A stretch of DNA of 64,000 nucleotides. Source: Spirochaetota bacterium (lineage in GTDB: Bacteria; Spirochaetota; UBA4802; UBA5550). Position numbers and translations under genes: made by a program. The notes under the pieces are model-generated. The model was not told the DNA's origin and searched no databases. It saw only the letters and a list, made by a program, of their open reading frames with translations. Position 1 is the stretch's first letter. The number at the start of each line of letters is the position of its first letter. Shown here in pieces: positions 14,327 to 37,267 of this stretch. The stretch lies in assembly GCA_025457915.1 (NCBI GenBank), contig JALOTL010000014.1, positions 5,156 to 69,155 on the forward strand, given 5' to 3'.

Positions 14327-17300
14327 CGGTTCATCCCCACATGCGTGGGGAATACTTAATCTGGCGAATGGTCTTTATGAATTTATCCGGTTCATCCCCA
14401 CATGCGTGGGGAATACTAGTAATGTAGAAATTTCTGGTTCACCCTTTACGGTTCATCCCCACATGCGTGGGGAATACACGAGATCGCCCTTTTTGATTCG
14501 ATTCCGGCCCGGTTCATCCCCACATGCGTGGGGAATACCGGAATAGCCGCGACAAGCGCGTCGACATAGTCGGTTCATCCCCACATGCGTGGGGAATACG
14601 GCACGCCAATAACAGATGGAATTAACGGAAGCGGTTCATCCCCACATGCGTGGGGAATACGGTCGGTTGATCCGAATTCTGCCGCATTCTGACGGTTCAT
14701 CCCCACATGCGTGGGGAATACCAATAGAAGATATATCATCTATCGTCCATGAACGGTTCATCCCCACATGCGTGGGGAATACGGTCGAACGATAAACGGA
14801 TGCAGAAGATCATCCGGTTCATCCCCACATGCGTGGGGAATACTCCGATGAAGATATCGCAAATTGTATTTATGGCGGTTCATCCCCACATGCGTGGGGA
14901 ATACCGTTATCGCAAGCGCGGCATCGGCAGTTAAGACGGTTCATCCCCACATGCGTGGGGAATACAGTAGACCATTTCCAGTCTTTATAATTAGACCCGG
15001 TTCATCCCCACATGCGTGGGGAATACTTTTATTTCCTCACTTACTATGGCGCAATACCCGGTTCATCCCCACATGCGTGGGGAATACTTTAACAATGGAC
15101 GCAAATAAAATTCTTGATACGGTTCATCCCCACATGCGTGGGGAATACTAGCTTTCCACTCATCCAGCATCCTCGAGTAACGGTTCATCCCCACATGCGT
15201 GGGGAATACATCGGATGCCTCGACCGGCGACGCGGCGGCGGTTCATCCCCACATGCGTGGGGAATACGTTTTCCTGTGTTTTAAACGGATCGTCTGATCC
15301 GGTTCATCCCCACATGCGTGGGGAATACGAAAAACACCGGGGGCGCGTGGACCTGTTCCGCGGTTCATCCCCACATGCGTGGGGAATACAAAAACAGAAA
15401 TGACAGTCCCGGTTGACCCATCGGTTCATCCCCACATGCGTGGGGAATACTTAGCCTTGTCCATAAGCGACGGAGCCGGGGCCGGTTCATCCCCACATGC
15501 GTGGGGAATACTCCATAAAAAATCCTTTTAAAATAATTTAGTCCGGTTCATCCCCACATGCGTGGGGAATACTCGGACCAAACTGAGGGTCCCCAAATTT
15601 TGTGCGGTTCATCCCCACATGCGTGGGGAATACTCCATAAAAAATCCTTTTAAAATAATTTAGTCCGGTTCATCCCCACATGCGTGGGGAATACTAAAAA
15701 ATTGTCGTTTTTCATTTTTTGGCCTCCGGTTCATCCCCACATGCGTGGGGAATACATGAGAAAACACGGTTGTTTAAAATAACATGACGGTTCATCCCCA
15801 CATGCGTGGGGAATACCTGATATGCTCTGACATTATGTTTATATTCTCCGGTTCATCCCCACATGCGTGGGGAATACTTAATCTGGCGAATGGTCTTTAT
15901 GAATTTATCCGGTTCATCCCCACATGCGTGGGGAATACGCTGCTGCCTGTGTATATACAGTCATGTATCCCGGTTCATCCCCACATGCGTGGGGAATACG
16001 AACAATGAAAGAGACTGTAAACTGGAAGGATGCGGTTCATCCCCACATGCGTGGGGAATACGTTGCGGTAATAATAATCATGATAATCAGTTTCGGTTCA
16101 TCCCCACATGCGTGGGGAATACAAACCCCTTCATTCCGGCTTTTTTTACTATCGCGGTTCATCCCCACATGCGTGGGGAATACGTCCTATGGCCGGGGCA
16201 AGACGAAAAATTGAACGGTTCATCCCCACATGCGTGGGGAATACTATAAAAACCTACTGTCCACAATCCCGGCTCACGGTTCATCCCCACATGCGTGGGG
16301 AATACTGCGCCCTCATTCATCGGTTCGCCCTGGTCATCGGTTCATCCCCACATGCGTGGGGAATACCTGGGGAGCCTGCAGAGCGTGGGCGGGTCCCTCG
16401 GTTCATCCCCACATGCGTGGGGAATACAAGCGGTGTCAGCATAACAACGGCGGCGAACACGGTTCATCCCCACATGCGTGGGGAATACTTAATACACCTG
16501 CCTAAAATAGCAGAGTCCACCGGTTCATCCCCACATGCGTGGGGAATACCAACTCTCTCTCTGTTTTGGCATCCTGTATTGCGGTTCATCCCCACATGCG
16601 TGGGGAATACACCATCAGCAGTTGATTTTTTGAGACCATTACCGGTTCATCCCCACATGCGTGGGGAATACTCCCAACATGGTCCGGAGGAGGCGGATTA
16701 TTCCGGTTCATCCCCACATGCGTGGGGAATACTTGCCCGATCCAGTCGTCATGTTGGTTATTGCCGGTTCATCCCCACATGCGTGGGGAATACTTTTTTA
16801 CCTATCACCTGCCCCATTACTCTACCGGTTCATCCCCACATGCGTGGGGAATACAGCGTTACATTTTTTGTCGGGTTCGTTACATTCGGTTCATCCCCAC
16901 ATGCGTGGGGAATACTACTACATGATGGGGAATGCATCAGGGGATTGCGGTTCATCCCCACATGCGTGGGGAATACAGATGAACGAAAAAGAATTGAATC
17001 AGGACAAACGGTTCATCCCCACATGCGTGGGGAATACCCGGGAGCCTTTTCGATGACCGAGACATCCGGCGGTTCATCCCCACATGCGTGGGGAATACGG
17101 GCAATGCCCTGACTAATCTTGAAATCATAGCGGTTCATCCCCACATGCGTGGGGAATACAACATCCTGATTTGATCAAATAGACACTTTTTCGGTTCATC
17201 CCCACATGCGTGGGGAATACTATCACGTTTGACGTCACGGTGATAGTATCGCCGGTTCATCCCCACATGCGTGGGGAATACGAATTTGAACTGACTGGAG

Positions 17301-17830
17301 AAAAAGATTATAACGGTTCATCCCCACATGCGTGGGGAATACTCAGCCTTCCGGATGCGTCATATTCGCCCCCCCGGTTCATCCCCACATGCGTGGGGAA
17401 TACGTTCCCACCGCTATATCGGCAAACAAGCGCGACGGTTCATCCCCACATGCGTGGGGAATACTTCAATTGCAAACCGAGTTCATCGATTCGACGCGGT
17501 TCATCCCCACATGCGTGGGGAATACTGCATCAGCGTCGTTTGAAGTATTCGCGCTTTCGGTTCATCCCCACATGCGTGGGGAATACTCTCAAAGCGTCTA
17601 CATAGTGATTATGTTTATCGGTTCATCCCCACATGCGTGGGGAATACTGCCTTGCCTGCCTCGCCTTGCCTAGCCCCGCCGGTTCATCCCCACATGCGTG
17701 GGGAATACTTAAGTTTCGATTGGTTCGCCGTCCCGCTTTTAGGTTCATCCCCACATGCGTGGGGAATACTTAACCCACGTTTTCAACATCTCGGGGTCAT
17801 CCGGTTCATCCCCACATGCGTGGGGAATAC
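14327..17830 (-). CRISPR. Type I-E CRISPR array of 58 repeats (29 bp) and 57 spacers (mostly 32 bp, 61-bp period), transcribed on the minus strand
   Basis: On the plus strand the repeat reads CGGTTCATCCCCACATGCGTGGGGAATAC. Its reverse complement GTATTCCCCACGCATGTGGGGATGAACCG aligns 21/29 with the E. coli I-E repeat, including the 3' ...GGGGATGAACCG handle, and the plus orientation matches only about 11/29. It contains a 6-7-bp stem (CCCCAC/GTGGGG) with a 4-nt loop. All ORFs called inside this interval (HPHMRGEY, SSPHAWGI, FIPTCVGNT repeats) are artefacts of repeat translation. Confidence 0.97.
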
Positions 17831-17871
17831 TCTAAAACGATGTATAGTAGTTTTCAAGGAACTATGCTGAA

Positions 17872-18174
17872 TTATTCAGCCACATCATTACTCTTTTTCT
17901 TTTTTACCGGTTTACTCAGTAACGAAATTCCGTCAAAATCTATAACGTTTCTATCGGGATCACCATTCACCCTTATACCATACGACTGTTCAGTATTAGT
18001 TGTGAATATCATAATCGCATTCAAGTTCCACTCGGATACGATACGCTCCCACAGCTTATCCTTCACCCGTGCCCCGACATCGGCGACGAAAACGCCGCTT
18101 TTAACCTCAATAGCTAACCGCGACATCTCGCCCCTCTGCGAAGGGGTCGATTTCTCCAACATAATCACTACCAT
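17872..18174 (-). CDS. cas2: Cas2 (type I-E)
   Basis: MVVIMLEKSTPSQRGEMSRLAIEVKSGVFVADVGARVKDKLWERI... aligns with E. coli Cas2 ([47 protein letters not shown]...). Confidence 0.9.
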   Translation of the reverse strand: MVVIMLEKSTPSQRGEMSRLAIEVKSGVFVADVGARVKDKLWERIVSEWNLNAIMIFTTNTEQSYGIRVNGDPDRNVIDFDGISLLSKPVKKKKSNDVAE

Positions 18175-18991
18175 AAATCAAATCCTTCAAATCCGGTATG
18201 ATTCTCTTCATTATCCTTACCTGACGGAATCTATCCCGCAGCGAATATCTTACCCTGCGTTCTACGTCTTCTGCTGATTCTTTGACAATTTCGAAGGCGA
18301 CAGGAATTGTTATATCAGTTTTATACAGGTCGGCTATATCATAAACTAAAGAAAGTTGTTTGCCGGTGTGAACGAACCCGATCGCCGTTGAGAACCCGCA
18401 AGCCAGAATCGCGGCTTGAACCACGCCATATAAACACGCATTAGCTGAAGACAAAGCTCGGTTCAGCGGATCTCCATAATTCCAGTTCTCCTGATCATAA
18501 CTCCGTCCTTTCCAGTCCACACCATGTTCTTCCGATAAATCCTTATACGCCTTGCGCATACGGGCGCCTTCCATCCCTCGTATCTGTTCTATGGAGGCTT
18601 CCTTCTTTATTATTTCATTGAATCTTTTTTGATACATGGCCCTGATGACATTATCGCGCGACACAGGATCGCTGTAAATCTCAACCTGTTTCAATAAATT
18701 CCTCGATGAATATGTCCCAGAATAACCTGATGAATAAAAGCGCACTCCCATCTCGCCCGTCCATGCCACAAGACACCGGCTGTCAGAAATGCGTTTGATG
18801 GCCTCGTGAGTTATCGATGTGCCGGGACCGAGCATAAGCAGACAAAGGGTCTCGATCGGCACCGGTATTACCTTGTCGAGATAATGAAAACCGATAGATT
18901 TTTGATGCTGGTCTATAATGCCTTTCTCAAAATAGAGATAGGACCAGGTATCTTCGAACTTCGGAATTTCCTGAAGGTCGCGGTTGGTCAT
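18107..18991 (-). CDS. cas1: Cas1 (type I-E integrase)
   Basis: The 294-aa product shares ...PVPIETLCLLMLGPGTSITHEAIKRIS...GMEGARMRKAYK...LYGVVQAAILACGFSTAIGFVHTGKQLSLVYDIADLYK... with E. coli Cas1e. It overlaps the cas2 start by 68 nt. Confidence 0.92.
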   Translation of the reverse strand: MTNRDLQEIPKFEDTWSYLYFEKGIIDQHQKSIGFHYLDKVIPVPIETLCLLMLGPGTSITHEAIKRISDSRCLVAWTGEMGVRFYSSGYSGTYSSRNLLKQVEIYSDPVSRDNVIRAMYQKRFNEIIKKEASIEQIRGMEGARMRKAYKDLSEEHGVDWKGRSYDQENWNYGDPLNRALSSANACLYGVVQAAILACGFSTAIGFVHTGKQLSLVYDIADLYKTDITIPVAFEIVKESAEDVERRVRYSLRDRFRQVRIMKRIIPDLKDLIYGSDYVGEIDPFAEGRDVAVSY

Positions 18992-18993
18992 GG

Positions 18994-19671
18994 TTAACCT
19001 TTCTCCGCCTCAATTTTGTTTATTCTATGCGGAACAAATTGTCTTTTTCTGCTATCGAAGCTTATTGCATTGTCCAGCAAAGAATCTATTCCTTGTTTGA
19101 AATCATCGACATCCATTTGCCGTGTGAAACTTGAAATAGATTTTTCTCCAACGAGGGATTTAACTGCATCGGCTTCTGTTTCAAATAATCCCGCACATAC
19201 TGGTGCCGTTGGTATACAGCTTTTTCTGCCGAGCCAGATACCCCATGCAGGGTCCTTTAATGCTTGTGCGGCATTATCAAGTAAGTGTTTATCACCGGAT
19301 AATATCACACCGAATGCGGCATCATTCAGATATTGGCGGTAAGTGATCACGGCATTGGGATTGGAAGCACCGCTGGCTTTGATCGTTCCTTCAACGGTGT
19401 GATAATCAATCAACCTTCGTACTTCAAATACCCGTTTACCTTCAATGCGGGGTATTGAAATCGCAAGCATCTTAAGGGAAAGGAATTTTTCAAGAAAAGC
19501 TTTTTCATCATCCGATCCCCGCGAATAGCCGAGAGCTGCACAACACATGCCAGCAACAGCACTCTTGGTAGGCATGAGACCGGTGTTGCGCCGGTTAAAC
19601 TGGCTGTCGTATCCCCATGACTGCATGGGGCCTTCCAATCGCAAGGCAAGGTATCCGGTCTTATTTGACAT
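18994..19671 (-). CDS. cas5: Cas5e (CasD), Cascade subunit
   Basis: MSNKTGYLALRLEGPMQSWGYDSQF...LIDYHTV...QYLNDAAFGV...WLGRKSC matches the E. coli CasD N-terminus (YLILRLAGPMQAWGQPTFE...LRDYHTV...LGRRSC). Confidence 0.9.
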   Translation of the reverse strand: MSNKTGYLALRLEGPMQSWGYDSQFNRRNTGLMPTKSAVAGMCCAALGYSRGSDDEKAFLEKFLSLKMLAISIPRIEGKRVFEVRRLIDYHTVEGTIKASGASNPNAVITYRQYLNDAAFGVILSGDKHLLDNAAQALKDPAWGIWLGRKSCIPTAPVCAGLFETEADAVKSLVGEKSISSFTRQMDVDDFKQGIDSLLDNAISFDSRKRQFVPHRINKIEAEKG

Positions 19672-20695
19672 ATTTATCCACCTTCTTTAATAATTCATCA
19701 AGAGTAATATCAGGTATGGATTCACAGAGGGACTCATTCAGCCCCCATGTTTTTTTGTTATTATCATATTCGTTGTTTAACGCCTCCTTGGATAATTCAA
19801 AAATGCTTTTCCCATCCTTAGGACGTATCGGTTTTTCAAAAGCATTTACAAGCTGTATTGGATGACCTTCATCACGAACAACGCATTTTACATATCCTGG
19901 AAGCGTATTCCCATTCATCGAATTTCTTCGCGCAGAAGGCATTGCCATGAGAGTGGATTTTATAAAAGTTTTTACTACTTCTTTGCGTTCATTCAATGCA
20001 ACGGCTTCAAGATGGGATTCATCTGCAAGCATATCAAGGTTAAGGGCTGAAAATCTGTAATAGGTGGCTGAATTATATTCCAGTGTGCCCATCATACCAG
20101 CACCTACTTCTTCATTCTTTTGTCTGTCATCAACAGCAGTAAAAAAATCAATCTCGTTATCGGCTTTATGAGTTGAAATAGCATGAGAAAACATTGCTGC
20201 TCCTTCTATTTTAAGATCTGGAGCATCAGCCACCATTCTACCGAATAAACATAAATCCGCAGCATCCTTCAGTAAATCTTTTGATCCACCAGCTTTAATC
20301 GCCTTTTTCACATCTTTAGTAGCTGCATACTCCTTGGCCATTGACTCCAATTCCCTTTGTGTAGTAAAAAACATGGTCTTCACGCGGGTTTCTGTATCGA
20401 CTTTGTTCATCGCACCAGCAATGACTTTTGCACCCTCAATCGAATCATTCTTGTTTAGGCCTGCCTTTTGTAGTTGTTCAGTTAATGGTTCAATTATTAG
20501 TTTAGTTCTCTCCCCCCTAAACCCCTGAGGATATAATTCCTTGGCCATATCTCTTATCGCTCTCTTCCAGCACTGGCTGGACACTCGTGCCCGTTGTACA
20601 CCACCAAAAATCGCGGTCTTGGGCGAATTAAGATCATCGCGATTTAAACAGGAAACCGGTACTGATTGCAGAATATGTAATTCAAGATGTTTCAT
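19661..20695 (-). CDS. cas7: Cas7e (CasC), Cascade backbone subunit
   Basis: MKHLELHILQSVPVSCLNRDDLNSPKTAIFGGVQRARVSSQCWKRAIR... matches the conserved Cas7e N-terminus (…HILQ..P.SNLNRDD.G.PKTA..GGV.RARVSS..WKRA.R). Confidence 0.9.
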   Translation of the reverse strand: MKHLELHILQSVPVSCLNRDDLNSPKTAIFGGVQRARVSSQCWKRAIRDMAKELYPQGFRGERTKLIIEPLTEQLQKAGLNKNDSIEGAKVIAGAMNKVDTETRVKTMFFTTQRELESMAKEYAATKDVKKAIKAGGSKDLLKDAADLCLFGRMVADAPDLKIEGAAMFSHAISTHKADNEIDFFTAVDDRQKNEEVGAGMMGTLEYNSATYYRFSALNLDMLADESHLEAVALNERKEVVKTFIKSTLMAMPSARRNSMNGNTLPGYVKCVVRDEGHPIQLVNAFEKPIRPKDGKSIFELSKEALNNEYDNNKKTWGLNESLCESIPDITLDELLKKVDKYVK

Positions 20696-20706
20696 TGTGT
20701 TACTCC

Positions 20707-21348
20707 TTATTGTAATTTTAACGGTTGTATGACCATCATGCCGAACCCGAAGCCCTTGGCGCTGCCTATACCCATCATAAATGCCTTTTTAAAGGCTTCT
20801 CGATCTATAACTTCGAGGACTCCCTGAAATCTGATGCCTACGTGAAGCCCAGGGTCACTTTTAATCTGATTTTTTATAAACCGATAATTTTGCGCAGGCT
20901 CAATAAAAAGCGGGGGATCATCCAAAACTGAAAAGCCACTCTCTTGTGCCTTTCTGTTAAACCAGTTGATCTGATCTTCCAATATTGTAAGCGCTTTTCT
21001 CATTCCATTTTTAGTACGTTTACCCTTATCATCTGTTTTGGGAATCTTTTTCGTTGGATTTGCTTTTATATCGAAACGATAAAAATTATGATCAAGAAAA
21101 TCATTTTTTAATTCCCTTACCGCCCAACAATCTTCAGGACACCATTCGGGACGCATAGGCTCTTGTAATGCCAGAATAAAAAGCCGAAAACCTCTCTCAA
21201 CCGTATCGACCCTGAACAGAAAATCCCTAGTTTTATCAGGCTCACCGGGAAATGCCTTCCATGCGGCTTTATGCCATGCATAAACGTCAAAAAGCCTGTA
21301 ACGTGCCGCGGTTTTACAGTCTATTACAGCTTTACTCAGGTATTTCAT
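20707..21348 (-). CDS. cas6e: Cas6e (CasE), crRNA endoribonuclease; located upstream of cas7e/cas5e (non-canonical order)
   Basis: From the internal Met the product reads MKYLSKAVIDCKTAARYRLFDVYAWHKAAWKAFPGEPDKTRDFLFRVD..., aligning to E. coli CasE (MYLSKVII...LYQLHQGLWHLFPNRPDAARDFLFHVE). It has a Gly-rich C-terminal loop (GSAKGFGFG). The ORF extends to 21408 but the start at 21348 is preferred. Confidence 0.88.
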   Translation of the reverse strand: MKYLSKAVIDCKTAARYRLFDVYAWHKAAWKAFPGEPDKTRDFLFRVDTVERGFRLFILALQEPMRPEWCPEDCWAVRELKNDFLDHNFYRFDIKANPTKKIPKTDDKGKRTKNGMRKALTILEDQINWFNRKAQESGFSVLDDPPLFIEPAQNYRFIKNQIKSDPGLHVGIRFQGVLEVIDREAFKKAFMMGIGSAKGFGFGMMVIQPLKLQ

Positions 21349-21835
21349 CGACCACCTCCGCCCCAGACGCCCAGAAGGAAGTCGCCCAACGGGTTTTAAC
21401 ATTATCACCCCAATAGATCAGATCACTTTCCAGTAGGACGTAATTAACCGGTAATCCTTCCGCTTTTGCTCTCAGTACAATCCTTTTCACCCGTTCGCAA
21501 ATCTCATCTCGATTTGAGGCAATAAGGTATTGCAATCGCTTGGCCATTGTGCCAGGTTTAGAGTCAACTTTTCTTAATTCATTCCTTTCATCATCGCTGC
21601 ATAATTGAAAACACAATGAACCGATATTTCCTTTTAAAGTAGGCTCTGGATGGCTTGCGAATAATCCAGCAACGGTTTGTTTTACCCGAGCCTCATGTTC
21701 ATCTCCTATTCCGCCAAAATAGCCAAGATGCGGATATGCCCGAAAACGTTTGCTTTCAACCAGTGCGCATCGAAGATCGGCCATTAAACCCCGGTCATCC
21801 TTTTTCTTAACCAAATAATCAAGTAAAGCGCTCAT
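21332..21835 (-). CDS. cse2: Cse2 (CasB), Cascade small subunit
   Basis: The 167-aa alpha-helical protein sits between cse1 and cas6e. The motif ...DRGLMADLRCAL... is typical of Cse2. Confidence 0.75.
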   Translation of the reverse strand: MSALLDYLVKKKDDRGLMADLRCALVESKRFRAYPHLGYFGGIGDEHEARVKQTVAGLFASHPEPTLKGNIGSLCFQLCSDDERNELRKVDSKPGTMAKRLQYLIASNRDEICERVKRIVLRAKAEGLPVNYVLLESDLIYWGDNVKTRWATSFWASGAEVVDEIPE

Positions 21836-23469
21836 AGGTTTTCCTCCTCTTGATTTGTTTTTACCTGAATCGAATTAGTATCTTGTTCTTTTTTATTTAA
21901 AACCCTCCAGCCAAGCACAAAGGCCCTTATCTGACGCGGGGTTTCTCTGCCGCATACAAGCTTATACGATTCACGGGCTGCAGCAAAAAGTGTTTTCTGC
22001 CAAACTTTACGTGTTGCTTCGACTTTTTCAGCTGATGTACCTATTGCTTCAATATACAACATCAACAGCGGAAGTGATTTTTCGATAGTAGTCCAGTAGT
22101 GGGTGGTGGCTTTGGAATGTATTTGTACACGCAATAAATAAGATGAGCTGCTGCTCTTCAATCTCCCCTCCCAACCACCATCAAAAGCTTTTCTATATTC
22201 TTCTATCGCCCAGCCTAACTTCTTCGATATTATTTCTGCGAACTGGACTTCATTTTCATAAGCTGCTCGTCCTGCATTACTAAACATTTTTTCATTCACA
22301 TGATATACACTATCTACCATATCAATAATTGAAGCTTGGTCTCGTGCTAAAGCGAGTATATGAAAATCAACGGATTCATTCTGATCAATATTCATCAGGC
22401 ATAGTGGGCCTCCTGCTTGTTGTGCTTTTCTTTTAACAACCATAGATGGAAGCTCTCGCCACGTTGCCGTTTCAGGATTGAATCTTAACAACGAAAAAAT
22501 TTGTTTTTTTGTGTTTCTTGACAAAATTACGGTTGCAGTAACTTCTGGCGGGAAAGGTATTTTTGAATTAAATGATCGATACATTAATCCTTCACCAATG
22601 ATCATGCAATCACATGATGGAAGAATTCTTATAAGACGACTTAGCGGCACCAATCTTCCTAGATACGTCTCTGTGGCATTATTGATGAAATCTACATCTG
22701 ACCGTTTTGATGGAAATTTTTCCCATATTGGGTTGCCCCAATAGTTTTCTCCCAGTGGTGAGTAATGCATTCGTAGTTCTTTTTTTGTTATTAGATTCTT
22801 ATTAATCGTCTTAGCGATATTTGAAGATCTGATGAAACAATGATACATACTGCCTGGTGAACAGGGACCATCCGATGGATTTGGAGGTTTTTTTTCTGGT
22901 GGAATACCGCCCCATATTACTGCTGCTGTTTTACCACCTGCAAGGAAAAAATTCTGAAATGATAAAAGTTGCACAGCAATTTCAGAAGGGCTGAACTCCC
23001 GGAGAATTTGAGATGATGCTTCATGATCGAATAAGGTCGGATTGACACCTGATGCTAGCGTATGATCTAGTTTGCTTAATGATATCTGTCCGCCCTCATC
23101 ATCATTGTCTTGGTTTTTATCCATTTGTGACTTTGTTAAATTTGCTATCTGCAAAAAAGGCTTCTTGGGATGAAACAAATCGAAGGAATCACGCCATTTA
23201 TCCAGATAGTTTCGTGCAGCTCCGGGAAGTATTTCTTTCGCATTGAGCCAATCATCGTAATCTTCTGGCCCATCAAGCGAGGCATGTGCAATGCAGAGCA
23301 ATAAACGCATGAGAGATACTCGCTCGTGCGGTCTGACTGCAAGATCAGCATAATTTTCACCATCGGCAAAAACATCCATCAAGCCGATCAATCTATATTC
23401 ACCTTTCAAATTAGTGACAGGTATCCACTTTTCATCGACAAGATTGAATCCCTTATTCTGACGATTCAT
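21832..23469 (-). CDS. cse1: Cse1 (CasA / Cas8e), Cascade large subunit
   Basis: From the internal Met the product reads MNRQNKGFNLVDEKWIPVTNLKG..., matching the Cse1 N-terminus (MNLLIDNWIPVR...). It is about 545 aa. The ORF as called extends to 23487 and overlaps cas3. Confidence 0.85.
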   Translation of the reverse strand: MNRQNKGFNLVDEKWIPVTNLKGEYRLIGLMDVFADGENYADLAVRPHERVSLMRLLLCIAHASLDGPEDYDDWLNAKEILPGAARNYLDKWRDSFDLFHPKKPFLQIANLTKSQMDKNQDNDDEGGQISLSKLDHTLASGVNPTLFDHEASSQILREFSPSEIAVQLLSFQNFFLAGGKTAAVIWGGIPPEKKPPNPSDGPCSPGSMYHCFIRSSNIAKTINKNLITKKELRMHYSPLGENYWGNPIWEKFPSKRSDVDFINNATETYLGRLVPLSRLIRILPSCDCMIIGEGLMYRSFNSKIPFPPEVTATVILSRNTKKQIFSLLRFNPETATWRELPSMVVKRKAQQAGGPLCLMNIDQNESVDFHILALARDQASIIDMVDSVYHVNEKMFSNAGRAAYENEVQFAEIISKKLGWAIEEYRKAFDGGWEGRLKSSSSSYLLRVQIHSKATTHYWTTIEKSLPLLMLYIEAIGTSAEKVEATRKVWQKTLFAAARESYKLVCGRETPRQIRAFVLGWRVLNKKEQDTNSIQVKTNQEEENL

Positions 23470-26020
23470 CAGACACCCCCTGGGCACGTATTATTTCCAA
23501 ACCTTTATCAATAGTCCATTTAAGTCTTATTCCTTTTTTCAAATTAGCGACATCGAGAAAGCCTCCATCACCAGGCACTGATAAAATCACACAGCCTGAA
23601 ACATATTTCGGAAGATAAGCTAAAGATATTTTTTTTTCGAAAACCCATGCGGGCACTTTAACAAGATTTTTTTGAATCGCTTTTCCAGTATCCTTGCTTT
23701 TCTTCCCGGTTTTTTCTTCTTTTCGGGGTATTTGAGAACCGTTTAATAGAATAATAAAATTATCTAATCGCTCTCTGGCAAGTATTATGGACACCGTCGA
23801 CTGGGTATTATAGCGAGTCATTACTTCTTCTTCATCGTCAAGTGATGGCATTTTTAAAATCGCTGTGGCAATTAGAGCTTTCTGCATGAGACCGTTCTTT
23901 TTTTCATGCAAGTCAGCTTTAAGCTCTTTCCATGATTCTGATGGTTCAACATTTTCGGAATAAGTATATTCTATAATTGAACGGATATCAAAGGGAATTA
24001 AGATGGTTTTGGTGTCACGCTTTTTCCACTCCATATAGGTTCGAAGCAAAACATAAGGATCGTATACATATGCTTTATTTCCTAATGCTTTACGAATTTC
24101 GCTCGATGTCATTTCAATGGATTGCTGAATATTAAAACTCTCCTTAAGAATCCAGAGTTCCGGCTTTTCAATTGGCCGTAAATGCCGATTGTGTCTCCAC
24201 AATCTCCCGATACGTTGGAGAAGCATATCAGTCGGTGCAAGTTCGGTTATAATCAAGTCGGCATCGATATCCACGCTCTGTTCTACAACCTGAGTAGCTA
24301 CCAGAATACATGAACCGCGCCCATTCCCATTTTTTCCAAGTTTTTCTAGCCATTTTTGCTCAATCTCCTCTCTTCTAAAAAACGGAAATCGAGAATGTAA
24401 AAGGCCGATCTCGACTGATCCTCGGTTTTCTTTATGTTTAAAAGAGTCGTATATTTCCTGTGAACGGGCAATAGTATCGCATATCCAAACTATCGAAGCT
24501 CCATTTTGCGCTTTTCCCCATGCATTAGAAATTGCTTTATTTTCATCAATAAAGCGTATGGCTATTTCTTTATTTTCTGGAGAATCAAGCGTAACGTCTG
24601 GTAGTATTTGTCCATCTGCGGTTTTTCCGCTGAGAAGAGGGTACCCGTTTGAGGAAGTCTTTTCATCATTATCAATGTCAAGCAATTCTATTCGCCGCGT
24701 TGCAGTAAGCGTGGCAGAGAGTATAATTACTGTGGCGCCAAGTTGTACGAGAGATCGACATAAATTATTTATGAGTGTTCCAGTATATATATCATAGGAA
24801 TGCACTTCATCAAGAATCACCACTTTGCCAGCCAGCGCAAACAGGCGAACAAAGAAATGCTTAACAGCTATAACACCCATGAGCGCCTGGTCTACAGTTC
24901 CTACACCAAATGGTGAAAGCAATGCGCGTTTTGGAGATGAAAACCAATCATATGCTGAGTCTCTTTCTTGGCTATCTCCATCAGGGTTGTTATTAATCTC
25001 CGGGATTTCAATTTTGTCATCTAATAACCAAGAGTTGCCGTGTATTAATTGTATAGATAGTGTTTTTTCGCAGATTCTATTGATAAAATCGACAACCCTT
25101 AGATGGATACGATTACTTGTAGTTTGGGTGGGGAGCGCAAAATAAATACCCGAAGCCTTTCCACTATTACAAAGCTGATAAGCAACGGAAAGTGCGGCTT
25201 CTGTTTTCCCTATACCCATAGGTGCTTCAATGACATAAATACCAGGCTCTTTTATAAATGCATTAACTGCAGTCTGTAGAGCATTTGCCTCGAATTCGAA
25301 GTAATCATAGAAATGCTTGCCGTTAATAATTGAAGGACGCACAAAACCAATATTATATAATGCTTCTTGGGTCCGTATTCTCGATTCTTCTGGGGGGATA
25401 TTACTCCCGGCAGGAAAAAACCGCTCATCGGACCCGATCCAATCGGACACCGTTGTCAAACCTGCAACAAACCAAAGGAGTGGATTGTCCGGTTTAACCG
25501 GGGAACTAATCAATTTGCCGTTGTTTTCAATAAAACTCTTTGCTACTTGACGACGCTTTTCTTCCCAGTAATCGTCACTCATTCCGAATCCCGGCAATAA
25601 TCCTCTCTCTCCATTATAGGTTATCCGACCGTGATGAGCGCCGATGGCCGCAGCCCAAAGCGTTGATGACATGCGGTCAAGTCCTGTATCCATTAATAAG
25701 TGCTCAATAGTATATTGGCTTACTTGAGAATGATTATATGGTGAGTTATCCCATCCATTTCGAATATCTTCCTTTTCCAAATTATACTTATGAAGCCACC
25801 CATGGCATTTCCTTTGAAATTGTGGAGAGATTTTACCTAAATCATGAAGGCCCGAGAGTATGGAAATATCAGTATTGGTAATATCAATACTGATTCTGGG
25901 ATAAAATATCGAAAAAATGCATTTTGCTACTGATGCAACATTTTGCATGTGGTGGTAAACATCTATCCCTGGGTTTTTATCTTCTGTTGTTTTTGCCCAA
26001 AATTCAATGTTATTCTGCAT
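23453..26020 (-). CDS. cas3: Cas3, HD nuclease fused to a superfamily-2 DEAH helicase
   Basis: The N-terminal HD domain has ...VYHHMQNVASV...LHDLGKISPQFQ.... The helicase has Walker A (APMGIGKTEAAL), a DEVH box (VILDEVHSYD) and motif VI (QRIGRLWR). The product is 855 aa. Confidence 0.93.
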   Translation of the reverse strand: MQNNIEFWAKTTEDKNPGIDVYHHMQNVASVAKCIFSIFYPRISIDITNTDISILSGLHDLGKISPQFQRKCHGWLHKYNLEKEDIRNGWDNSPYNHSQVSQYTIEHLLMDTGLDRMSSTLWAAAIGAHHGRITYNGERGLLPGFGMSDDYWEEKRRQVAKSFIENNGKLISSPVKPDNPLLWFVAGLTTVSDWIGSDERFFPAGSNIPPEESRIRTQEALYNIGFVRPSIINGKHFYDYFEFEANALQTAVNAFIKEPGIYVIEAPMGIGKTEAALSVAYQLCNSGKASGIYFALPTQTTSNRIHLRVVDFINRICEKTLSIQLIHGNSWLLDDKIEIPEINNNPDGDSQERDSAYDWFSSPKRALLSPFGVGTVDQALMGVIAVKHFFVRLFALAGKVVILDEVHSYDIYTGTLINNLCRSLVQLGATVIILSATLTATRRIELLDIDNDEKTSSNGYPLLSGKTADGQILPDVTLDSPENKEIAIRFIDENKAISNAWGKAQNGASIVWICDTIARSQEIYDSFKHKENRGSVEIGLLHSRFPFFRREEIEQKWLEKLGKNGNGRGSCILVATQVVEQSVDIDADLIITELAPTDMLLQRIGRLWRHNRHLRPIEKPELWILKESFNIQQSIEMTSSEIRKALGNKAYVYDPYVLLRTYMEWKKRDTKTILIPFDIRSIIEYTYSENVEPSESWKELKADLHEKKNGLMQKALIATAILKMPSLDDEEEVMTRYNTQSTVSIILARERLDNFIILLNGSQIPRKEEKTGKKSKDTGKAIQKNLVKVPAWVFEKKISLAYLPKYVSGCVILSVPGDGGFLDVANLKKGIRLKWTIDKGLEIIRAQGVSDESSE

Positions 26021-26290
26021 TATTTATAAAACCAATATCTAATATTAATAATTGCTTAATAATTATTTTCATCTCCCCGTCTTTACAACATACAATCTCC
26101 TCCCTGACAGAAAGTGACATATACATCCGTTTGGCACCCAAAAAGAGTTGAAACTTTTTAAAATATATATAATAATATTATTATATGCAAACTGTTTTTT
26201 ATAGTTTTAACTTTTCATTTTGAAGTAATTTAATTATGCGTTAAAAAACATCTTTGATCTTAGTATTAATATTTTTTAGGAGCTATTCCA
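26021..26290. promoter_or_regulatory. AT-rich divergent promoter region between cas3 and the WYL regulator gene, containing a 20-bp perfect palindrome
   Basis: The 270-bp intergenic region is very AT-rich. A perfect palindrome ATATAATAATATTATTATAT lies at 26167-26186. The RBS AGGAGCTATTCC precedes the WYL gene ATG at 26291. Confidence 0.5.
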
Positions 26291-27262
26291 ATGAAATATG
26301 GCAAACCTCTCCTCTCAAGGATACAATTTATTGATGCCCGTATCCGTGATGGTAAATATCCCAATTCACGTAAACTTGCAGAAGAGTATGAGGTTAGTGA
26401 ACGAACTATTCACCGTGATATTGATTATATGAGGGACATGCTTGGTTGCCCAATAGAATATAATAAAAATAAACGTGGCTATTATTACGCAGAGCCCTTC
26501 TTTTCACTCCCTTCCGTACAAATAACCGAAAAAGAACTATTTGCATTTTGTGTAGCAGAAAAAGCATTAGAAGAATACCGTGCTACCCCTCTATATGACA
26601 CTTTAGCTAAAGTCTATAAAAAACTTACCGAAAATTTAACAGATGAAATTACAGCCAATTTTTCATGGTTAAATCCTGATATATCATTCATTCAACAAAG
26701 CACAACAATAATCACACCTTCAATCTGGGAAACAATATCTACTGCACTTTATACTCATTCTGTTTTAGATGCCAGTCATCGTAAAGCCGGCGCCACCAAA
26801 TCAACTAAACGCTTGATAGAGCCATATCATATGGCAATCTATGAAGGAGAATGGTATTTAATAGGCTACTGTAGATTAAAAAAAGAAACATTAATATTCG
26901 CAATATCACGATTTGAAAGTGTGAAACGTTTAAACGAAACATTTGTAAAACCAGAAACATTTAACATTAATGAATATTTAGGTTCTCATTTCGGTATAAC
27001 AAGAGAAAATGAGAATTATCAGGTCAAAGTGAAATTCAACTCCACAGCTGCACCTTATATCTTGGAACGTAATTGGTCTTGCGACCAAACAATAGATAAA
27101 AATAAAGATGGAAGTATTATTTTAACTTTTAAATCAAATTCTATCAAAGAAGTAAAGCGCTGGGTCTTAAGTTGGGGTTCAACAGTTGAGGTTATTTCCC
27201 CAAATGAGTTAGTACTGGATATTTATAATGAATTAAAATTGATGATAGAAAATTACAAATAA
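26291..27262 (+). CDS. HTH-WYL-domain transcriptional regulator (DeoR-type HTH N-terminus, central WYL domain, C-terminal WCX-like extension)
   Basis: The N-terminus carries the HTH ...YPNSRKLAEEYEVSERTIHRDIDYM.... The WYL motif reads ...RLIEPYHMAIYEGEWYLIGYCRLKKETLIFAISRF.... The gene is divergent from cas3. Confidence 0.8.
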   Translation: MKYGKPLLSRIQFIDARIRDGKYPNSRKLAEEYEVSERTIHRDIDYMRDMLGCPIEYNKNKRGYYYAEPFFSLPSVQITEKELFAFCVAEKALEEYRATPLYDTLAKVYKKLTENLTDEITANFSWLNPDISFIQQSTTIITPSIWETISTALYTHSVLDASHRKAGATKSTKRLIEPYHMAIYEGEWYLIGYCRLKKETLIFAISRFESVKRLNETFVKPETFNINEYLGSHFGITRENENYQVKVKFNSTAAPYILERNWSCDQTIDKNKDGSIILTFKSNSIKEVKRWVLSWGSTVEVISPNELVLDIYNELKLMIENYK

Positions 27263-27604
27263 ATTGTTTTTTAACGAATGGCATCACCTTTTTATTATAA
27301 ATTTTTTTCGTTCCTTGATTCAAATTCCCGTCTCATAATTCATCTCTTCCTCCTTTCTTCCTCCTATGTTGCTCCTATCTAGCTCCTATGTTGCTCCAGT
27401 ATATTTTTTTTTAATTTTTAAAGAAGATCTCTACGTTTCAATAATTGGTAAAAATTTTAAAAAATTTCCTCAAAAATTTTCATAAACCCCTCCCCTGCTC
27501 GTCAATTTATTAAAAGCACATAAGGAGGTATGGCATGTAGAACAAAAAATTCGTAATCAATCTCAAAAGTTCAAAAATTATTTAAAGCCATAGGAGGTAT
27601 AATC

Positions 27605-28228
27605 ATGGCAAAAGTAGATTTAAATCCCGTCTTCGAGGGATTCAGTAAAAAAATCGGAGAACTCGTTTTTTACACGAAAGGTGGCATGGCCTTCGTAAGA
27701 AGGCTGGGGTCATTTAAAAATCCCAACAGCCCGAAACAGCTTGAAGTGAGAAACCGTTTCATGCAGGCAACCGGTCTCTGGAAAACAGTCGGCGGCATCA
27801 TGCACCGCGGCTGGTACGAATACGCAAAAAAGAAAAGGCTTTACGGTTACCCGGCCTTTATAGGTGAAAACACTAAAAGGTTTGCTAACCAACTTGCGCC
27901 GGACCTCTTCAAGGAACACGGTGAGGCCCCTCTTTCATCTTTCACCTGCGAACCTTCTGCGTCATCAGGTGAAATTATGTGTTCATTCACAAATCCATCT
28001 TCAAATGCTGAAAAACATGTTACTCTCTTCGCACATGAAAAGTTAAATGGTCAGCCTATTGTTGAGGTCAGAAGAATCGATCTTGGTCTCTCTCCTGCAT
28101 CGCCACATGCAGTGTCTGGTTTTGAACCCGGAAAAACTTATACCATTCATGCGGTTGTAACAGACAGGATGTATCCTGAAGCGGAATCATCTTCAGCGTC
28201 TCTTTCGCACGAATCATTGGTTAACTGA
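27605..28228 (+). CDS. Hypothetical 207-aa protein of unknown function at the edge of the cas island
   Basis: The ATG at 27605 has a strong RBS (AGGAGGTATAATC). No family was recognised. The gene is followed by a bidirectional hairpin terminator. Confidence 0.5.
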   Translation: MAKVDLNPVFEGFSKKIGELVFYTKGGMAFVRRLGSFKNPNSPKQLEVRNRFMQATGLWKTVGGIMHRGWYEYAKKKRLYGYPAFIGENTKRFANQLAPDLFKEHGEAPLSSFTCEPSASSGEIMCSFTNPSSNAEKHVTLFAHEKLNGQPIVEVRRIDLGLSPASPHAVSGFEPGKTYTIHAVVTDRMYPEAESSSASLSHESLVN

Positions 28229-34389: not shown

Positions 34390-34417
34390 ATAGGCGCCGA
34401 TTCGAATCGGCGCCTAT
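34390..34417. repeat. 28-bp perfect palindrome (core GGCGCCGATTCGAATCGGCGCC), copy 1, downstream of paralog 1
   Basis: ATAGGCGCCGATTCGAATCGGCGCCTAT is self-complementary over 28 bp. It is followed at 34428-34500 by three degenerate 19-bp units (CCGATGCYTGTRTRTAACC). Confidence 0.7.
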
Positions 34418-35797: not shown

Positions 35798-37267
35798 ATG
35801 CTTTTTAATTCAATTGAATTTATTGTCTTTTTTCCTATAGTTACTTTTCTTTATTTTTTTCTCCCACATAAATACAGATGGTCCATGCTTCTTGCGGCAA
35901 GCTGCATTTTTTACATGGCCTTCATACCTGTCTATATTTTCATCCTTGGAATAACAATTCTAATAGATTATACAGCTGCATTATGGATAGCATCTTCCGA
36001 GGGTAGGAAAAAAAAATTATATTTAATCATTAGTATTATTTCAACTTGTCTTGTTTTATTTGTTTTCAAGTATTTTAATTTCTTTAACAGTAATTTTGCG
36101 AGAATTGCATCTTTCTTCCACTGGAAGTATCCGATAGAGATCATAAATATTATCCTTCCCATAGGGCTTTCTTTTCACACGTTTCAAAGCCTGAGCTATG
36201 TTATTGAGGTATACAGGGGAAACCAGAAACCGGAACGGCATTTCGGCGTATACGCGCTATATGTAATGTTTTATCCCCAGCTTGTTGCCGGACCTATCGA
36301 GAGGCCCCAAAATTTACTTCATCAATTCCATGAAGAGCATTTCATCAATTATTCGAGAATAACAGATGGACTCAAGCTGATGGCCTGGGGGATGTTCAAG
36401 AAGGTCGTAATTGCTGACAGATTGGCTATTCTTGTCAATCAGGTGTATAATGATCCGACAGTATATTCCGGCTTTCCATTGATTCTTGCGACTGTATTTT
36501 TTTCTTTTCAGATATATTGTGATTTTTCGGGATATTCGGATATAGCCATCGGTTCCGCCCAGGTTATGGGTTTTAGATTGATGGACAACTTCAACAGGCC
36601 CTATTTTTCCAAATCCGTAGCCGAATTCTGGAAGAGATGGCATATATCGCTGTCGAGCTGGTTCAGGGATTATCTCTATATTTCACTCGGGGGCAAAAAA
36701 GTCGGCAATAGCAGGTGGCAGTTTAATCTTTTTTTCACTTTCCTTGTAAGCGGATTATGGCACGGCGCCAATTGGACATTTGTCGCCTGGGGGGCGATTA
36801 ATGGGCTGTTTCTTTTATGCTCAATCTGGACTAAGAAATTAAGGGAAAAAATTGTCGCTGTCTCCGGAATTTACAGGTTCCCTAGGTTTTATAAATACAT
36901 GAGGGTATTGTTTGTTTTTTCATTAATCAGCTTCGCCTGGATTTTTTTCAGGGCAAAAAATATTTCGGATGCATATTACATAATAACCCACATGTTTAAA
37001 AATCTGATTAATGTGAATGTTATCTCCAAGAATCTGCTGATAATATCGCATGGATGGCTGAAATTGACCGGTTATGAAATAATTATTTCAATACTTATGA
37101 TATTGTTCATGGAAGCGGTTCACTTGATTCAAAGACACGGGAGCATCAGGCGCATGCTTTCCGAGAAGCCGGTATGGGTAAGATGGTCCATATATTTTAT
37201 AATTACATACAGTATCATATTTTTCGGCGTGTTCGATAATACTCAATTTATTTATTTTCAGTTTTAA
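35798..37267 (+). CDS. MBOAT-family membrane-bound O-acyltransferase (AlgI/DltB-like)
   Basis: Multi-TM helices are present with the conserved MBOAT His region (...FWKRWHISLSSWFRDYLYISLGG...). The gene is low-GC relative to its surroundings. Confidence 0.8.
   Translation: MLFNSIEFIVFFPIVTFLYFFLPHKYRWSMLLAASCIFYMAFIPVYIFILGITILIDYTAALWIASSEGRKKKLYLIISIISTCLVLFVFKYFNFFNSNFARIASFFHWKYPIEIINIILPIGLSFHTFQSLSYVIEVYRGNQKPERHFGVYALYVMFYPQLVAGPIERPQNLLHQFHEEHFINYSRITDGLKLMAWGMFKKVVIADRLAILVNQVYNDPTVYSGFPLILATVFFSFQIYCDFSGYSDIAIGSAQVMGFRLMDNFNRPYFSKSVAEFWKRWHISLSSWFRDYLYISLGGKKVGNSRWQFNLFFTFLVSGLWHGANWTFVAWGAINGLFLLCSIWTKKLREKIVAVSGIYRFPRFYKYMRVLFVFSLISFAWIFFRAKNISDAYYIITHMFKNLINVNVISKNLLIISHGWLKLTGYEIIISILMILFMEAVHLIQRHGSIRRMLSEKPVWVRWSIYFIITYSIIFFGVFDNTQFIYFQF

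Follow-up and report, generated by a model that had tools for sequence, protein, structure and literature searches.

The timing of CRISPR-Cas expression is poorly understood outside a few model organisms. WYL-domain proteins were predicted in 2014 to be ligand-sensing switches. Fusions of WYL and Cas3 have been reported (PMC4012209). Sll7009 of Synechocystis, a WYL repressor of a subtype I-D CRISPR-Cas locus, is the single CRISPR case with experimental support. It is the only experimentally supported WYL control of cas/CRISPR expression cited in the sources used here (PMC9122601; PMC4012209). CapW and BrxR, which repress CBASS, BREX and other defence islands, belong to the three-domain wHTH-WYL-WCX family. 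Their genes lie at the edge of the defence system. Both proteins sense single-stranded DNA (ssDNA), and the site they bind, close to the promoter, is an inverted repeat whose halves are 5 bp apart (PMC9122601; PMC11662680).

DriD and PafBC are activators that sense ssDNA. DriD of Caulobacter crescentus is an ssDNA-activated transcription activator with the domains wHTH-3HB-WYL-WCX. Its optimal site is ATACGACAGTAACTGTCGTAT (PMC13004042), and the base-reading arginines are Arg37 and Arg41 (PMC10853764). A box located 10 nt 5' of the driD ATG activates the divergent CCNA_03891 promoter, which has no -35 element (PMC9186387; PMC13004042). PafBC activates the LexA-independent DNA damage response of Actinobacteria. 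PafBC is a heterodimer or a tandem fusion and uses the non-palindromic RecA-NDp motif (PMC6789036).

Here we describe a WYL regulator gene that is adjacent to a type I-E cas operon. The window is the whole 64,000-nucleotide stretch of DNA that was analysed, and its relevant features are listed in Table 1. Homologous loci are cited by their numbers (L004 and so on).

Table 1. Features of the regulator-cas3 region, in positions of the window.
Feature	Position	Strand	Basis
CRISPR array, 58 copies of the 29-nt I-E repeat, plus strand CGGTTCATCCCCACATGCGTGGGGAATAC	14327..17830	-	repeat search, 61-nt periodicity
cse1, cse2, cas6e, cas7, cas5, cas1, cas2 (type I-E), ORFs overlapping or abutting	17872..23487	-	Pfam
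cas3, 855 aa, HD nuclease and helicase, first gene of the operon	23453..26020	-	Pfam Cas3_HD, Cas3-like_C_2, Helicase_C
Spacer between cas3 and the WYL gene, 270 bp, 24% GC, containing all regulatory candidates	26021..26290	.	ORF coordinates, composition
68-nt conserved block 5' of the closest WYL homologues	26085..26152	+	two alignments and nhmmer
Putative -10 hexamer TATGTT of the leftward (cas3) promoter, without a recognisable -35	26087..26092	-	position table, inference
Candidate operator, pseudo-palindromic DriD-type box CTGACAGAAAGTGACAT, core GACA-N5-TGAC at 26106-26118	26104..26120	.	alignment, dyad enrichment
Conserved motif ACATCCGTTT (ACATCYRTTW), between the box and the WYL promoter	26123..26132	+	present in seven loci
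Predicted sigma-70-type WYL promoter, TTGAAA - 17 nt - AATAAT	26148..26176	+	consensus scan, 10/12 matches
20-bp perfect AT palindrome ATATAATAATATTATTATAT, TATAAT on both strands, overlapping the -10 region of the WYL promoter	26167..26186	.	letter check
WYL regulator gene (DriD-like transcription factor, wHTH - helical linker - WYL - WCX, 323 aa)	26291..27262	+	Pfam, PADLOC, phmmer, AF2/Foldseek

The product of the WYL gene is a genuine HTH-WYL-WCX regulator. An N-terminal HTH and a WYL domain had been claimed for it in an earlier note, and profile searches bear out both. Pfam places HTH_11 at aa 26-64 (E 1.7e-8; 34.6 bits against a cut-off of 25), WYL (PF13280) at aa 146-212 (E 5.3e-15; 55.6 bits against 21.8) and WCX (PF25583) at aa 242-318 (E 5.7e-16; 59.1 bits against 23.9). 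The WYL signature peptide quoted in the note is found in the product by alignment. The regulator carries W188-Y189-L190, of which W188 and Y189 are invariant among 47 homologues. AGGAG lies directly 5' of the ATG start codon. The PADLOC models of CRISPR-associated WYL proteins match the regulator with an E value of 6.6e-39, and the N-terminal third of the PADLOC Cas3c model is also matched; this search gave no further matches.

By sequence and by predicted fold, the regulator is closest to DriD, then to PafBC, and farther from the repressors CapW and BrxR. In a phmmer search of the PDB, DriD chains were matched at E 4e-9 to 1e-8 and PafBC at 5e-8, and CapW/BrxR chains were absent from the matches at E<0.01. 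The AF2 model has a pLDDT of 81.9, with three helices and a beta hairpin at aa 5-66 and a low-confidence helical linker at aa 70-140 (pLDDT 47-67). Foldseek places DriD 8tp8 at the top of the PDB matches to this model (E 6e-18, TM 0.62). Ranks 1-8 are all DriD chains (E 6e-18 to 8e-14; TM 0.57-0.63 for the full-length chains), PafBC follows at E 8e-14, and CapW/BrxR are at E of about 3e-10 with TM 0.33-0.41.

The recognition helix of the regulator reads R38-T39-I40-H41-R42, and the family consensus is SxRTIxRDI. The R-T-x-x-R of the regulator resembles R37-T38-x-x-R41 of DriD by pattern only (PMC10853764), and when the N-terminal 116 aa were searched alone against the PDB, DriD was not among the matches. 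Conservation of the DriD ssDNA pocket is partial, as judged from the phmmer alignment and the published list of ssDNA-contacting residues (PMC9186387). R178, Y192, W206 and R288 of DriD are kept as R174 (invariant), Y189, F203 and K286, and R176, R204, R207 and Y240 are changed to T172, L201, A204 and T237.

Pfam identified all eight cas genes of a complete type I-E set. They run in the order cas3-cse1-cse2-cas6e-cas7-cas5-cas1-cas2 from 26020 down to 17872, with cas6e preceding cas7. The genes downstream of cas3 match CRISPR_Cse1, Cse2, CRISPR_assoc, Cas_CT1975, Cas_Cas5d, Cas_Cas1 and Cas2CT1978. For cas3, the NCBIfam domain models cas3_core and cas3_HD score above their cut-offs; the top match is PRK09694, the full-length Cas3 equivalog, yet its score is under the cut-off. 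The earlier note had described the cas genes as a single minus-strand unit from cas3, and they plausibly form one transcription unit beginning there. The ORFs overlap or abut, and a minus-strand terminator scan of the operon returned a single weak 5-pair hairpin, within cas6e (20796-20783). The CRISPR array is presumably transcribed from the minus strand, judging by the polarity of its repeats against the I-E repeat consensus. The head-to-head arrangement of cas3 and the WYL gene across an AT-rich spacer is as the note had stated.

The 68-nt block in this spacer is kept in the seven loci with the closest relatives of the regulator. An nhmmer profile built from four loci found the block in three independently fetched ones, L095 (5e-11), L096 (3e-13) and L097 (1.5e-8), always immediately 5' of the WYL gene. 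Within the block, about 50 bases left of the AT palindrome, is the DriD-type box. The box aligns column by column with the perfect GACA-N5-TGTC boxes of L094, L096 and L004. This dyad is present in 33 of 94 upstream regions and in 17 of 3694 control windows, or, with one mismatch allowed, in 59 of 94 and 316 of 3694. Since the loci are related by descent, these counts and the position counts given below overstate independence. The family operator consensus is GTAGGACA-N5-TGTCCTAC, and its dyad core GACA-N5-TGTC matches the core of the optimal DriD site (PMC13004042).

The copy of the box in the window has one mismatch in the right half and lacks the GGTAG flanks. The same TGAC right half is found in 9 of the 38 non-redundant loci. 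With a matrix trained on the other loci, the box ranks 4th among 63,978 window positions, with a score of 5.7 compared with a training median of 24.4. The best matrix match of the whole window, at 54717-54739, lies over the stop codon of a SpoIIE-phosphatase gene; it was set aside as a further box, being probably a chance match. The ACATCYRTTW motif next to the box is present in the window, L081, L094, L095, L096, L097 and L004, with extra copies in L081 (inverted), L004 and L012. A reading of the block as a RecA-NDp-like promoter of the PafBC type was dropped in favour of DriD, for which site and promoter sequences are published.

On the cas3 strand, the putative -10 hexamer TATGTT is 13 nt from the box core. 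The position table contains a TATnnT hexamer at this fixed distance: on the strand opposite the WYL gene, the 38 non-redundant box loci have T in 32, A in 32, T in 22 and, after two unconstrained positions, T in 27. The left neighbour is divergent in 24 of 32 box-bearing loci. Since the box is 13 nt upstream of TATnnT and a -35 element is absent, the box occupies the place of a -35. Hexamer and box together have the geometry of a DriD-activated promoter, a function that we predict from sequence. The regulator gene has its own predicted promoter further right. Relatives keep its TTGNNN -35, as TTGTAT or TTGTAC behind an A-tract, and where the -10 aligns they have TATACT-like elements.

We assign a probability of about 45% to the reading that a DriD-type factor, liganded by ssDNA, acts on the box and activates leftward transcription from cas3 to cas2. 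The regulator would be a homodimeric wHTH-WYL-WCX factor of the DriD type. The ligand of its WYL domain would most probably be ssDNA arising from DNA damage or infection. The liganded dimer would bind CTGACAGAAAGTGACAT as the local copy of the GACA-N5-TGTC operator that most family members have upstream. Once bound, the dimer may assist RNA polymerase in initiating leftward transcription that extends from cas3 as far as cas2. The regulator gene itself would be driven from the sigma-70-like promoter, and the AT palindrome would merely happen to be the -10 region of this promoter. A more specific proposal is that the ssDNA-sensing activator is wired to the cas3 promoter so that ssDNA from infection, from damage or made by Cas3 switches on CRISPR-Cas; we regard this as possible but unlikely.

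The same protein and box may also work with the opposite sign. A repressor of the CapW/BrxR style would block one or both of the divergent promoters, and binding of ssDNA to the WYL domain would then de-repress cas. In the sources used here, the characterised defence-linked WYL regulators are all repressors, namely Sll7009 (I-D CRISPR), BrxR and CapW (PMC9122601; PMC4012209; PMC11662680). The hexamer has a palindromic TATA core, and on the plus strand TACAAT (26091-26096) overlaps the hexamer. A rightward promoter, with the box on its downstream side, is therefore a second reading of this DNA and would amount to BrxR-like repression (PMC9122601). Where the box and the palindrome lie would also allow a rightward promoter to be repressed. 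In the compact loci of the family, the box is 20-30 nt 5' of the WYL ATG and 3' of a plus-strand TATCAT-type hexamer, an arrangement that resembles the BrxR R-box and the suggested autorepression of driD (PMC9186387; PMC9122601). However, in sequence and fold DriD and PafBC, both activators, are nearer to the regulator than CapW/BrxR are (TM 0.62 for DriD versus 0.33-0.41). The hexamer is also conserved in a way more typical of a -10 when it is read opposite to the WYL gene: the final T is then present in 71% of loci, compared with 37% for the plus-strand reading. In addition, the box does not overlap the sigma-70-like promoter of the WYL gene. Repression through the box is an improbable reading.

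The adjacency to cas3 can also be incidental. A portable module of WYL gene, box and promoter would have landed beside cas3 through island shuffling, the regulator would act on itself or on distant targets, and cas would use another promoter. The linkage of WYL proteins with CRISPR, on which the earlier note had drawn, holds in that it recurs at cas3 in three other independent loci, two of them of type I-C. It does not hold as a trait of the family, since cas3 (subtypes I-E and I-C) is near only 4 of about 95 loci. In L009 and L066, cas3 was detected by an HMM derived from three Cas3 proteins. A tblastn search with the eight I-E Cas proteins of the window against 80 homologous loci gave no matches and is too insensitive for other subtypes. 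The module would normally drive other genes, in the clade of the window a RAYT/IS200-like gene. Gene neighbourhoods differ greatly among about 90 homologues and include genes for a chemoreceptor, a Na+/H+ exchanger, AddAB-like, SbcCD-like and SNF2-HEPN proteins, enoyl-CoA hydratase and others. All-against-all clustering of the neighbouring ORFs gave no universally conserved neighbour. Since Pfam scans of ten divergent partner genes revealed no common function, a DNA-damage regulon cannot be claimed for the family.

Loci of the clade nearest to the window keep a RAYT/IS200-like gene, instead of cas3, as the divergent partner. In L081, a RAYT-like gene and a 5' fragment of cas3 lie between the WYL gene and cas3. 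No WYL gene is present in the 2 kb of sequence available upstream of the most closely related I-E operon, whose Cas3 is 70% identical. From the partner in the clade and from this operon, the cas3 junction in the window may be recent. The GC content of the WYL gene (31%) contrasts with that of the cas operon (about 40%), and the minus strand of the spacer has other promoter-like sites at 26191-26162 and 26048-26019. Against mere chance, the adjacency to cas3 is repeatedly seen, in two subtypes, and takes three different arrangements. L066 (type I-C) has cas3 directly 3' of the WYL gene and, about 100 nt 5' of the cas3 ATG, a second site that resembles the box, ATAGGACGGTATTTGTCTCAC, with a PWM score of 20.1. 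In L100, an unrelated WYL-WCX protein (22% identity) is encoded directly 5' of a related I-E cas3. In the window itself, whatever the history, the conserved leftward hexamer and the box now face cas3, and neither a gene nor a terminator separates them from it. On balance, incidental adjacency seems rather improbable.

The clade of WYL regulators to which the family belongs is large and spans Spirochaetota, Desulfobulbia and PVC bacteria. A metagenome scan with the regulator protein returned distant relatives only (24-36% identity).

In the earlier note, the AT palindrome was proposed as a plausible operator. In the corresponding model, the WYL protein would control both divergent promoters through it. 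The palindrome is exact, as the note had stated. When the spacer was shuffled 20,000 times with its dinucleotides preserved, a zero-spacer palindrome with arms of at least 10 arose in 0.22% of cases (P about 0.002). No further copies with up to 3 mismatches were found in the 64-kb window, nor was a second copy of its 14-nt core. The palindrome has TATAAT on both strands and lies over predicted promoter elements in both directions. Where L096 aligns with it, another AT-rich dyad, GGATATATTCTATATCC, is present. However, the palindrome is missing from all seven loci with the closest homologues, despite conserved recognition helices and although the block to its left is kept. The GAC/GTC bases that mark the family dyad are absent from it. 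Moreover, it is (ATA)n/(TAT)n in DNA of 24% GC, where -10-like hexamers and slippage-prone repeats are expected, and it coincides with the predicted -10 of the WYL promoter. The palindrome is very unlikely to be the operator, and the box is likely the better candidate by comparison of the upstream sequences. Folded as RNA, the palindrome gives a weak hairpin (-4.1 kcal/mol, z -0.87) that is no better than those of shuffles, and an Rfam search of both strands of the spacer with E up to 1 gave no match. A riboswitch, sRNA or terminator reading was rejected on these two grounds.

The regulator is a plausible and fairly ordinary case of a known type of defence-gene regulator. The locus is a compact, testable system with a defined 17-bp box, a divergent promoter and a nearest solved relative that is understood mechanistically. 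If cas3 is activated in response to ssDNA, sensing of the DNA-damage type would be tied directly to adaptive immunity, and the DriD mechanism would be used beyond DNA repair. Interference would also enter a positive feedback loop, in which ssDNA made by Cas3 raises cas expression and spacer acquisition. Among WYL proteins that control defence systems, the known cases are repressors, and an activator would be a first. If the regulator merely represses, it would be another instance of the CapW/BrxR logic. The operator consensus is supplied for a WYL clade that is otherwise uncharacterised.

Compared with the known systems, the regulator shares with CapW and BrxR the three-domain family and a place beside a defence operon. 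It differs from them in length (323 aa versus about 285 aa) and falls outside their clade by sequence. Like Sll7009, as this protein is described in the portions of the sources used here, it is a WYL regulator tied genetically to a type I CRISPR-Cas locus, of subtype I-E rather than I-D. PafBC is its second-best match, and a proposed likeness is that PafBC is an activator at promoters without a usable -35. Unlike PafBC, the regulator is a single 323-aa chain with no adjacent paralogue, and the family operator is a dyad.

The likeness to DriD is the closest. The regulator and DriD have nearly the same length (323 and 327 aa) and an identical domain order, DriD is the top match in both sequence and fold, and the R-T-x-x-R recognition-helix pattern is present in both. 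They differ in that the two proteins are only 17-19% identical and several ssDNA-contacting residues are not the same. The box flanks are ATAC/GTAT in DriD and GTAG/CTAC in the regulator family. In the clade of the window, the box is about 185 nt from the regulator ATG, and the regulator gene has a second promoter of its own. In both systems, however, the operator core is GACA-N5-TGTC and the box lies between the regulator gene and a divergent promoter, here a putative one, without a -35. The targets of DriD are DNA-damage genes, whereas the target proposed here is a CRISPR-Cas operon.

The candidate operator of the WYL protein, here called the box, lies in a 68-nt conserved block immediately left of an AT-rich palindrome in the cas3/WYL spacer. 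The block can be aligned in the window and in three comparison loci, L081, L094 and L004. A profile built from these four recovered it in L095 (E 5e-11), L096 (3e-13) and L097 (1.5e-8), all obtained after the profile had been defined, and L009 has a compressed version. Unbiased dyad enumeration in 94 upstream regions of the WYL family found GGACA-N5-TGTCC in 25 regions (0.05 expected) and GACA-N5-TGTC in 33 (0.35 expected). In 320-nt windows, the exact GACA-N5-TGTC dyad is present in 33/94 upstream and 17/3694 control windows, and with one mismatch in 59/94 and 316/3694, respectively; the box-bearing loci behind these counts are phylogenetically related. The family consensus, GTAGGACA-N5-TGTCCTAC, shares the GACA-N5-TGTC core with the optimal DriD site, ATACGACAGTAACTGTCGTAT (PMC13004042). 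The right half of the window's orthologous box is TGAC instead of TGTC, a variant shared by 9/38 non-redundant loci, which belong to several clades. Scored by a matrix whose training loci did not include the window, this box ranks 4th among 63,978 window positions, and its modest score results from differing flanks. The top family-matrix match in the window (score 13.8) coincides with the stop codon of a gene for a SpoIIE phosphatase and lies 5' of an Fe-S/CCG-domain gene; it is probably a chance match and could be a second target. L066 has a second box-like site about 100 nt 5' of its cas3 start. The motif ACATCYRTTW fills part of the interval from the box to the WYL promoter and also occurs in L081, L094-L097, L004 and L012. 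It has additional copies in L004, L012 and L081, the one in L081 being inverted and close to where WYL transcription is predicted to begin.

A hexamer on the opposite strand accompanies the box on the side away from the WYL gene, at a constant 13 nt from the core. Its counts in the 38 non-redundant, phylogenetically related box loci are T 32/38, A 32/38, T 22/38, n, n and T 27/38, the pattern of conservation expected of a -10 element. No -35 is evident, and the box fills that position. Leftward transcription is predicted to start near 26080, about 60 nt 5' of the cas3 ATG. The left neighbour is divergent in 24/32 box-bearing loci. The TATA core is legible on both strands (TATCAT in Desulfurivibrionaceae), so the box may instead lie shortly downstream of a promoter that points rightward, which would amount to BrxR-like or driD-like autorepression. 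Repression in the manner of the WYL repressors CapW and BrxR, through this box, is a serious rival to activation.

The earlier note had recognized the product as an HTH-WYL regulator, and Pfam confirmed this with matches above the curated cut-offs to HTH_11 (aa 26-64), WYL (aa 146-212) and WCX (aa 242-318). The PADLOC CRISPR-associated 'WYL' model matches the protein at E 6.6e-39. The N-terminal third of the PADLOC 'Cas3c' model also aligns to it, which is explained by known WYL-Cas3 fusions (PMC4012209). In a phmmer search against all PDB sequences, chains of the activator DriD were at the top (E 4e-9 to 1e-8), followed by mycobacterial PafBC (5e-8), and chains of CapW and BrxR were absent at E<0.01. 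An AlphaFold2 model built on an alignment of 47 sequences (mean pLDDT 81.9) was searched against PDB by Foldseek, giving DriD (8tp8; E 6e-18, TM-score 0.62), PafBC (E 8e-14), CapW/BrxR (E about 3e-10, TM-score 0.33-0.41) and the VI-D accessory protein WYL1 (E 2e-6). The recognition helix, S-E-R38-T-I-H-R42-D-I (family consensus SxRTIxRDI), resembles the R-T-x-x-R helix with which DriD reads its operator through Arg37 and Arg41 (PMC10853764); the correspondence of R38/R42 is from the pattern alone, not from a computed HTH alignment. The residues holding ssDNA in DriD include R176, R178, Y192, R204, W206, R207, Y240 and R288 (PMC9186387). In the phmmer alignment, R178, Y192, W206 and R288 are conserved or replaced by similar residues (R174, Y189, F203 and K286), whereas R176, R204, R207 and Y240 are not. 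By analogy with DriD, PafBC and CapW, ssDNA would be the most likely ligand.

Proximity to cas3 was assessed in 80 genome loci from Spirochaetota, Desulfobulbia and PVC bacteria (homologues of 38-55% identity), plus contigs of the closest metagenomic homologues (53-60%). WYL neighbourhoods are highly variable and include a chemoreceptor, an Na+/H+ exchanger, an AddAB-like helicase-nuclease, an SbcCD-like pair, an SNF2-HEPN protein and enoyl-CoA hydratase. SbcD-like phosphoesterase and SbcC-like AAA_23 ATPase genes are downstream of the homologue in L091, L093 and L001, and the AddAB-like pair in L069/L071 is divergent with a one-mismatch box. Such DNA-end-processing neighbours are in keeping with a link to DNA damage or ssDNA in some members of the family. 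A Cas3 HMM placed cas3 near the WYL gene at three more independent loci, four of about 95 in total, so that cas3 linkage is a minority state that recurs across subtypes and arrangements. In L081/L082 (type I-C), the genes diverge and are separated by a RAYT/IS200-like gene and a 5' fragment of cas3; in L066 (type I-C), cas3 is directly 3' on the same strand; in L009, the genes are divergent with two small ORFs between them.

The adjacency of WYL and cas3 may also be incidental, since the closest clade usually has a RAYT/IS200-like (Y1 transposase-like) gene as divergent partner, namely in the three closest loci with enough upstream contig (L081, L097 and L094). The window has no RAYT-like gene; one also lies 5' of cas3 in L081 and immediately 5' of cas3 in L098, the closest I-E operon (Cas3 70% identical), where the 2 kb of available sequence upstream of cas3 contain no WYL gene. 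A WYL-RAYT-cas3 neighbourhood network is possible; ssDNA is a substrate of Y1 transposases as well as of Cas3. The cas3 HD-domain fragment in L081 comes from a different cas3, sharing 38% identity with the resident one and 56% with that of L066. It is a recombination scar at the cas3 5' end beside the WYL module. The next closest I-E locus, L100 (Cas3 57% identical), encodes an unrelated WYL-WCX protein immediately 5' of cas3 and in the same orientation. It therefore appears that cas3 has acquired WYL regulators on more than one occasion, in line with the general WYL/CRISPR association described in 2014 (PMC4012209).

The palindrome reported in the earlier note is exact and has no other copy in the window with up to three mismatches; when the 24% GC spacer was shuffled with dinucleotides preserved, only 0.22% of the shuffles contained one that long. 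As an operator of the WYL protein it is a weak candidate, because it is not conserved in relatives, unlike the block to its left. It aligns between the conserved -35 of the WYL gene's sigma-70-like promoter and a second conserved motif, ATG(T/C)AAAC, found just 3' of the WYL -10; in relatives, TATACT-type -10 elements occupy this interval. The palindrome consists of (ATA)n/(TAT)n, with TATAAT readable on both strands. At the aligned place, L096 alone carries another AT dyad. RNA folding of the palindrome was no better than that of shuffles, and an Rfam search of the spacer gave no match. Most simply, the palindrome is the AT-rich -10 region of the WYL gene's own promoter, and its symmetry may be fortuitous or serve another factor.

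Feature coordinates in the window and in the comparison loci
Feature	Locus	Position	Strand	Details
CRISPR array	window	14327-17830		58 repeats, 57/58 identical
Promoter-like TTGAAA-17-TAGAGT	window	17857 to 17829	-	overlaps first CRISPR repeat
cas3, cse1, cse2, cas6e, cas7, cas5, cas1, cas2	window	down to 17872	-	complete type I-E set
cas3	window	23453-26020	-	start codon 270 bp from WYL gene
Upstream ORF	window	26010-26072	-	20 codons, MKIIIKQLLILDIGFINNAE; GGGGAG directly 5'
Conserved block	window	26085-26152		68 nt
Hexamer TATGTT	window	26092 to 26087	leftward	
TACAAT	window	26091-96	rightward	possible promoter
Box	window	26104-26120		CTGACAGAAAGTGACAT
ACATCYRTTW	window	26123-26132		
WYL -35	window	26148-53		TTGAAA; TTGTAT in relatives
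AT palindrome	window	26167-26186		ATATAATAATATTATTATAT
WYL gene	window	26291-27262	+	323 aa; ATG start with AGGAG before it
CT-rich tandem repeat	window	27345-27397		11-nt unit TCTTCCTCCTA, 4.8 copies; just 3' of WYL gene
Unannotated ORF	window	27605-28228		207 aa; weak DUF6266 match; beyond CT-rich repeat
GC-rich palindrome	window	34390-34417		ATAGGCGCCGATTCGAATCGGCGCCTAT; 28 bp, perfect
MBOAT block	window	35798-38314		low GC
GC-rich palindrome	window	39807-39828		GGCGCCGATTCGAATCGGCGCC; 22 bp, perfect
Fe-S/CCG-domain gene	window	53254-54450	-	
Top family-matrix match	window	54717-54739		GAAAGGTCATATAATGTCCATGC
SpoIIE-phosphatase gene	window	54723-56237	-	
cas3 HD-domain fragment	L081	6712-6888	-	58-aa ORF between RAYT-like gene and resident I-C cas3
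RAYT/IS200-like gene	L081	7127-7708	-	
RAYT/IS200-like gene	L094	2-154	-	
RAYT/IS200-like gene	L097	1-306	-	
RAYT-like gene	L098	1471-1956	+	
Iteron-like array	L100	4587-4802		9.4 tandem copies, 23-nt unit ATCAGGATGGTAGCAGTCGAGGG; precedes WYL-WCX gene
WYL-WCX gene	L100	4931-5845		304 aa; 22% identical to window's WYL protein
AddAB-like pair	L069/L071	4113-9781		
SbcD/SbcC-like pair	L091	10025-13257		

The I-E cas ORFs overlap or abut, and the only minus-strand terminator-like match in the operon is a weak 5-pair hairpin within cas6e. At its cas-proximal end the array comes to within 41 nt of the cas2 stop codon, so that hardly any space is left for a conventional leader. The cas3 start has no Shine-Dalgarno sequence. 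The upstream ORF terminates with an 11-nt overlap at the cas3 start codon, and translational coupling is possible; the GGAG-ATG spacing is very short. A compositional island spans about 14000-28200 (cas operon about 39-46% GC, WYL gene and spacer about 31%, flanks 55-62%), which suggests horizontally acquired DNA. Further low-GC patches occur at 7-9 kb, 35-38.5 kb, 47-48 kb and 53-57 kb. The MBOAT block is bracketed by the two GC-rich palindromes, which have a common core and each adjoin a gene whose product weakly matches an outer-membrane beta-barrel.

The proposal of the earlier note that the WYL protein controls the cas operon is partly supported: the position of the gene makes control of cas3-cas2 plausible, and the palindrome is a weak choice of operator. 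The best-supported mechanism for cas3 control is DriD-like activation via the box. The WYL protein would bind the box in a ligand-dependent manner and, once bound, would activate the leftward promoter without a -35. That WYL regulators occur at CRISPR loci is well established, and the point of interest at this locus is the sign of regulation, activator versus repressor. The box/-10 layout of the family is that reported for DriD, whose activated promoters have the DriD site in place of a -35, with an invariant spacing to the -10 (PMC9186387; PMC13004042). A box located 10 nt 5' of the driD start codon likewise serves the divergent CCNA_03891/01149 promoter (PMC9186387; PMC13004042).
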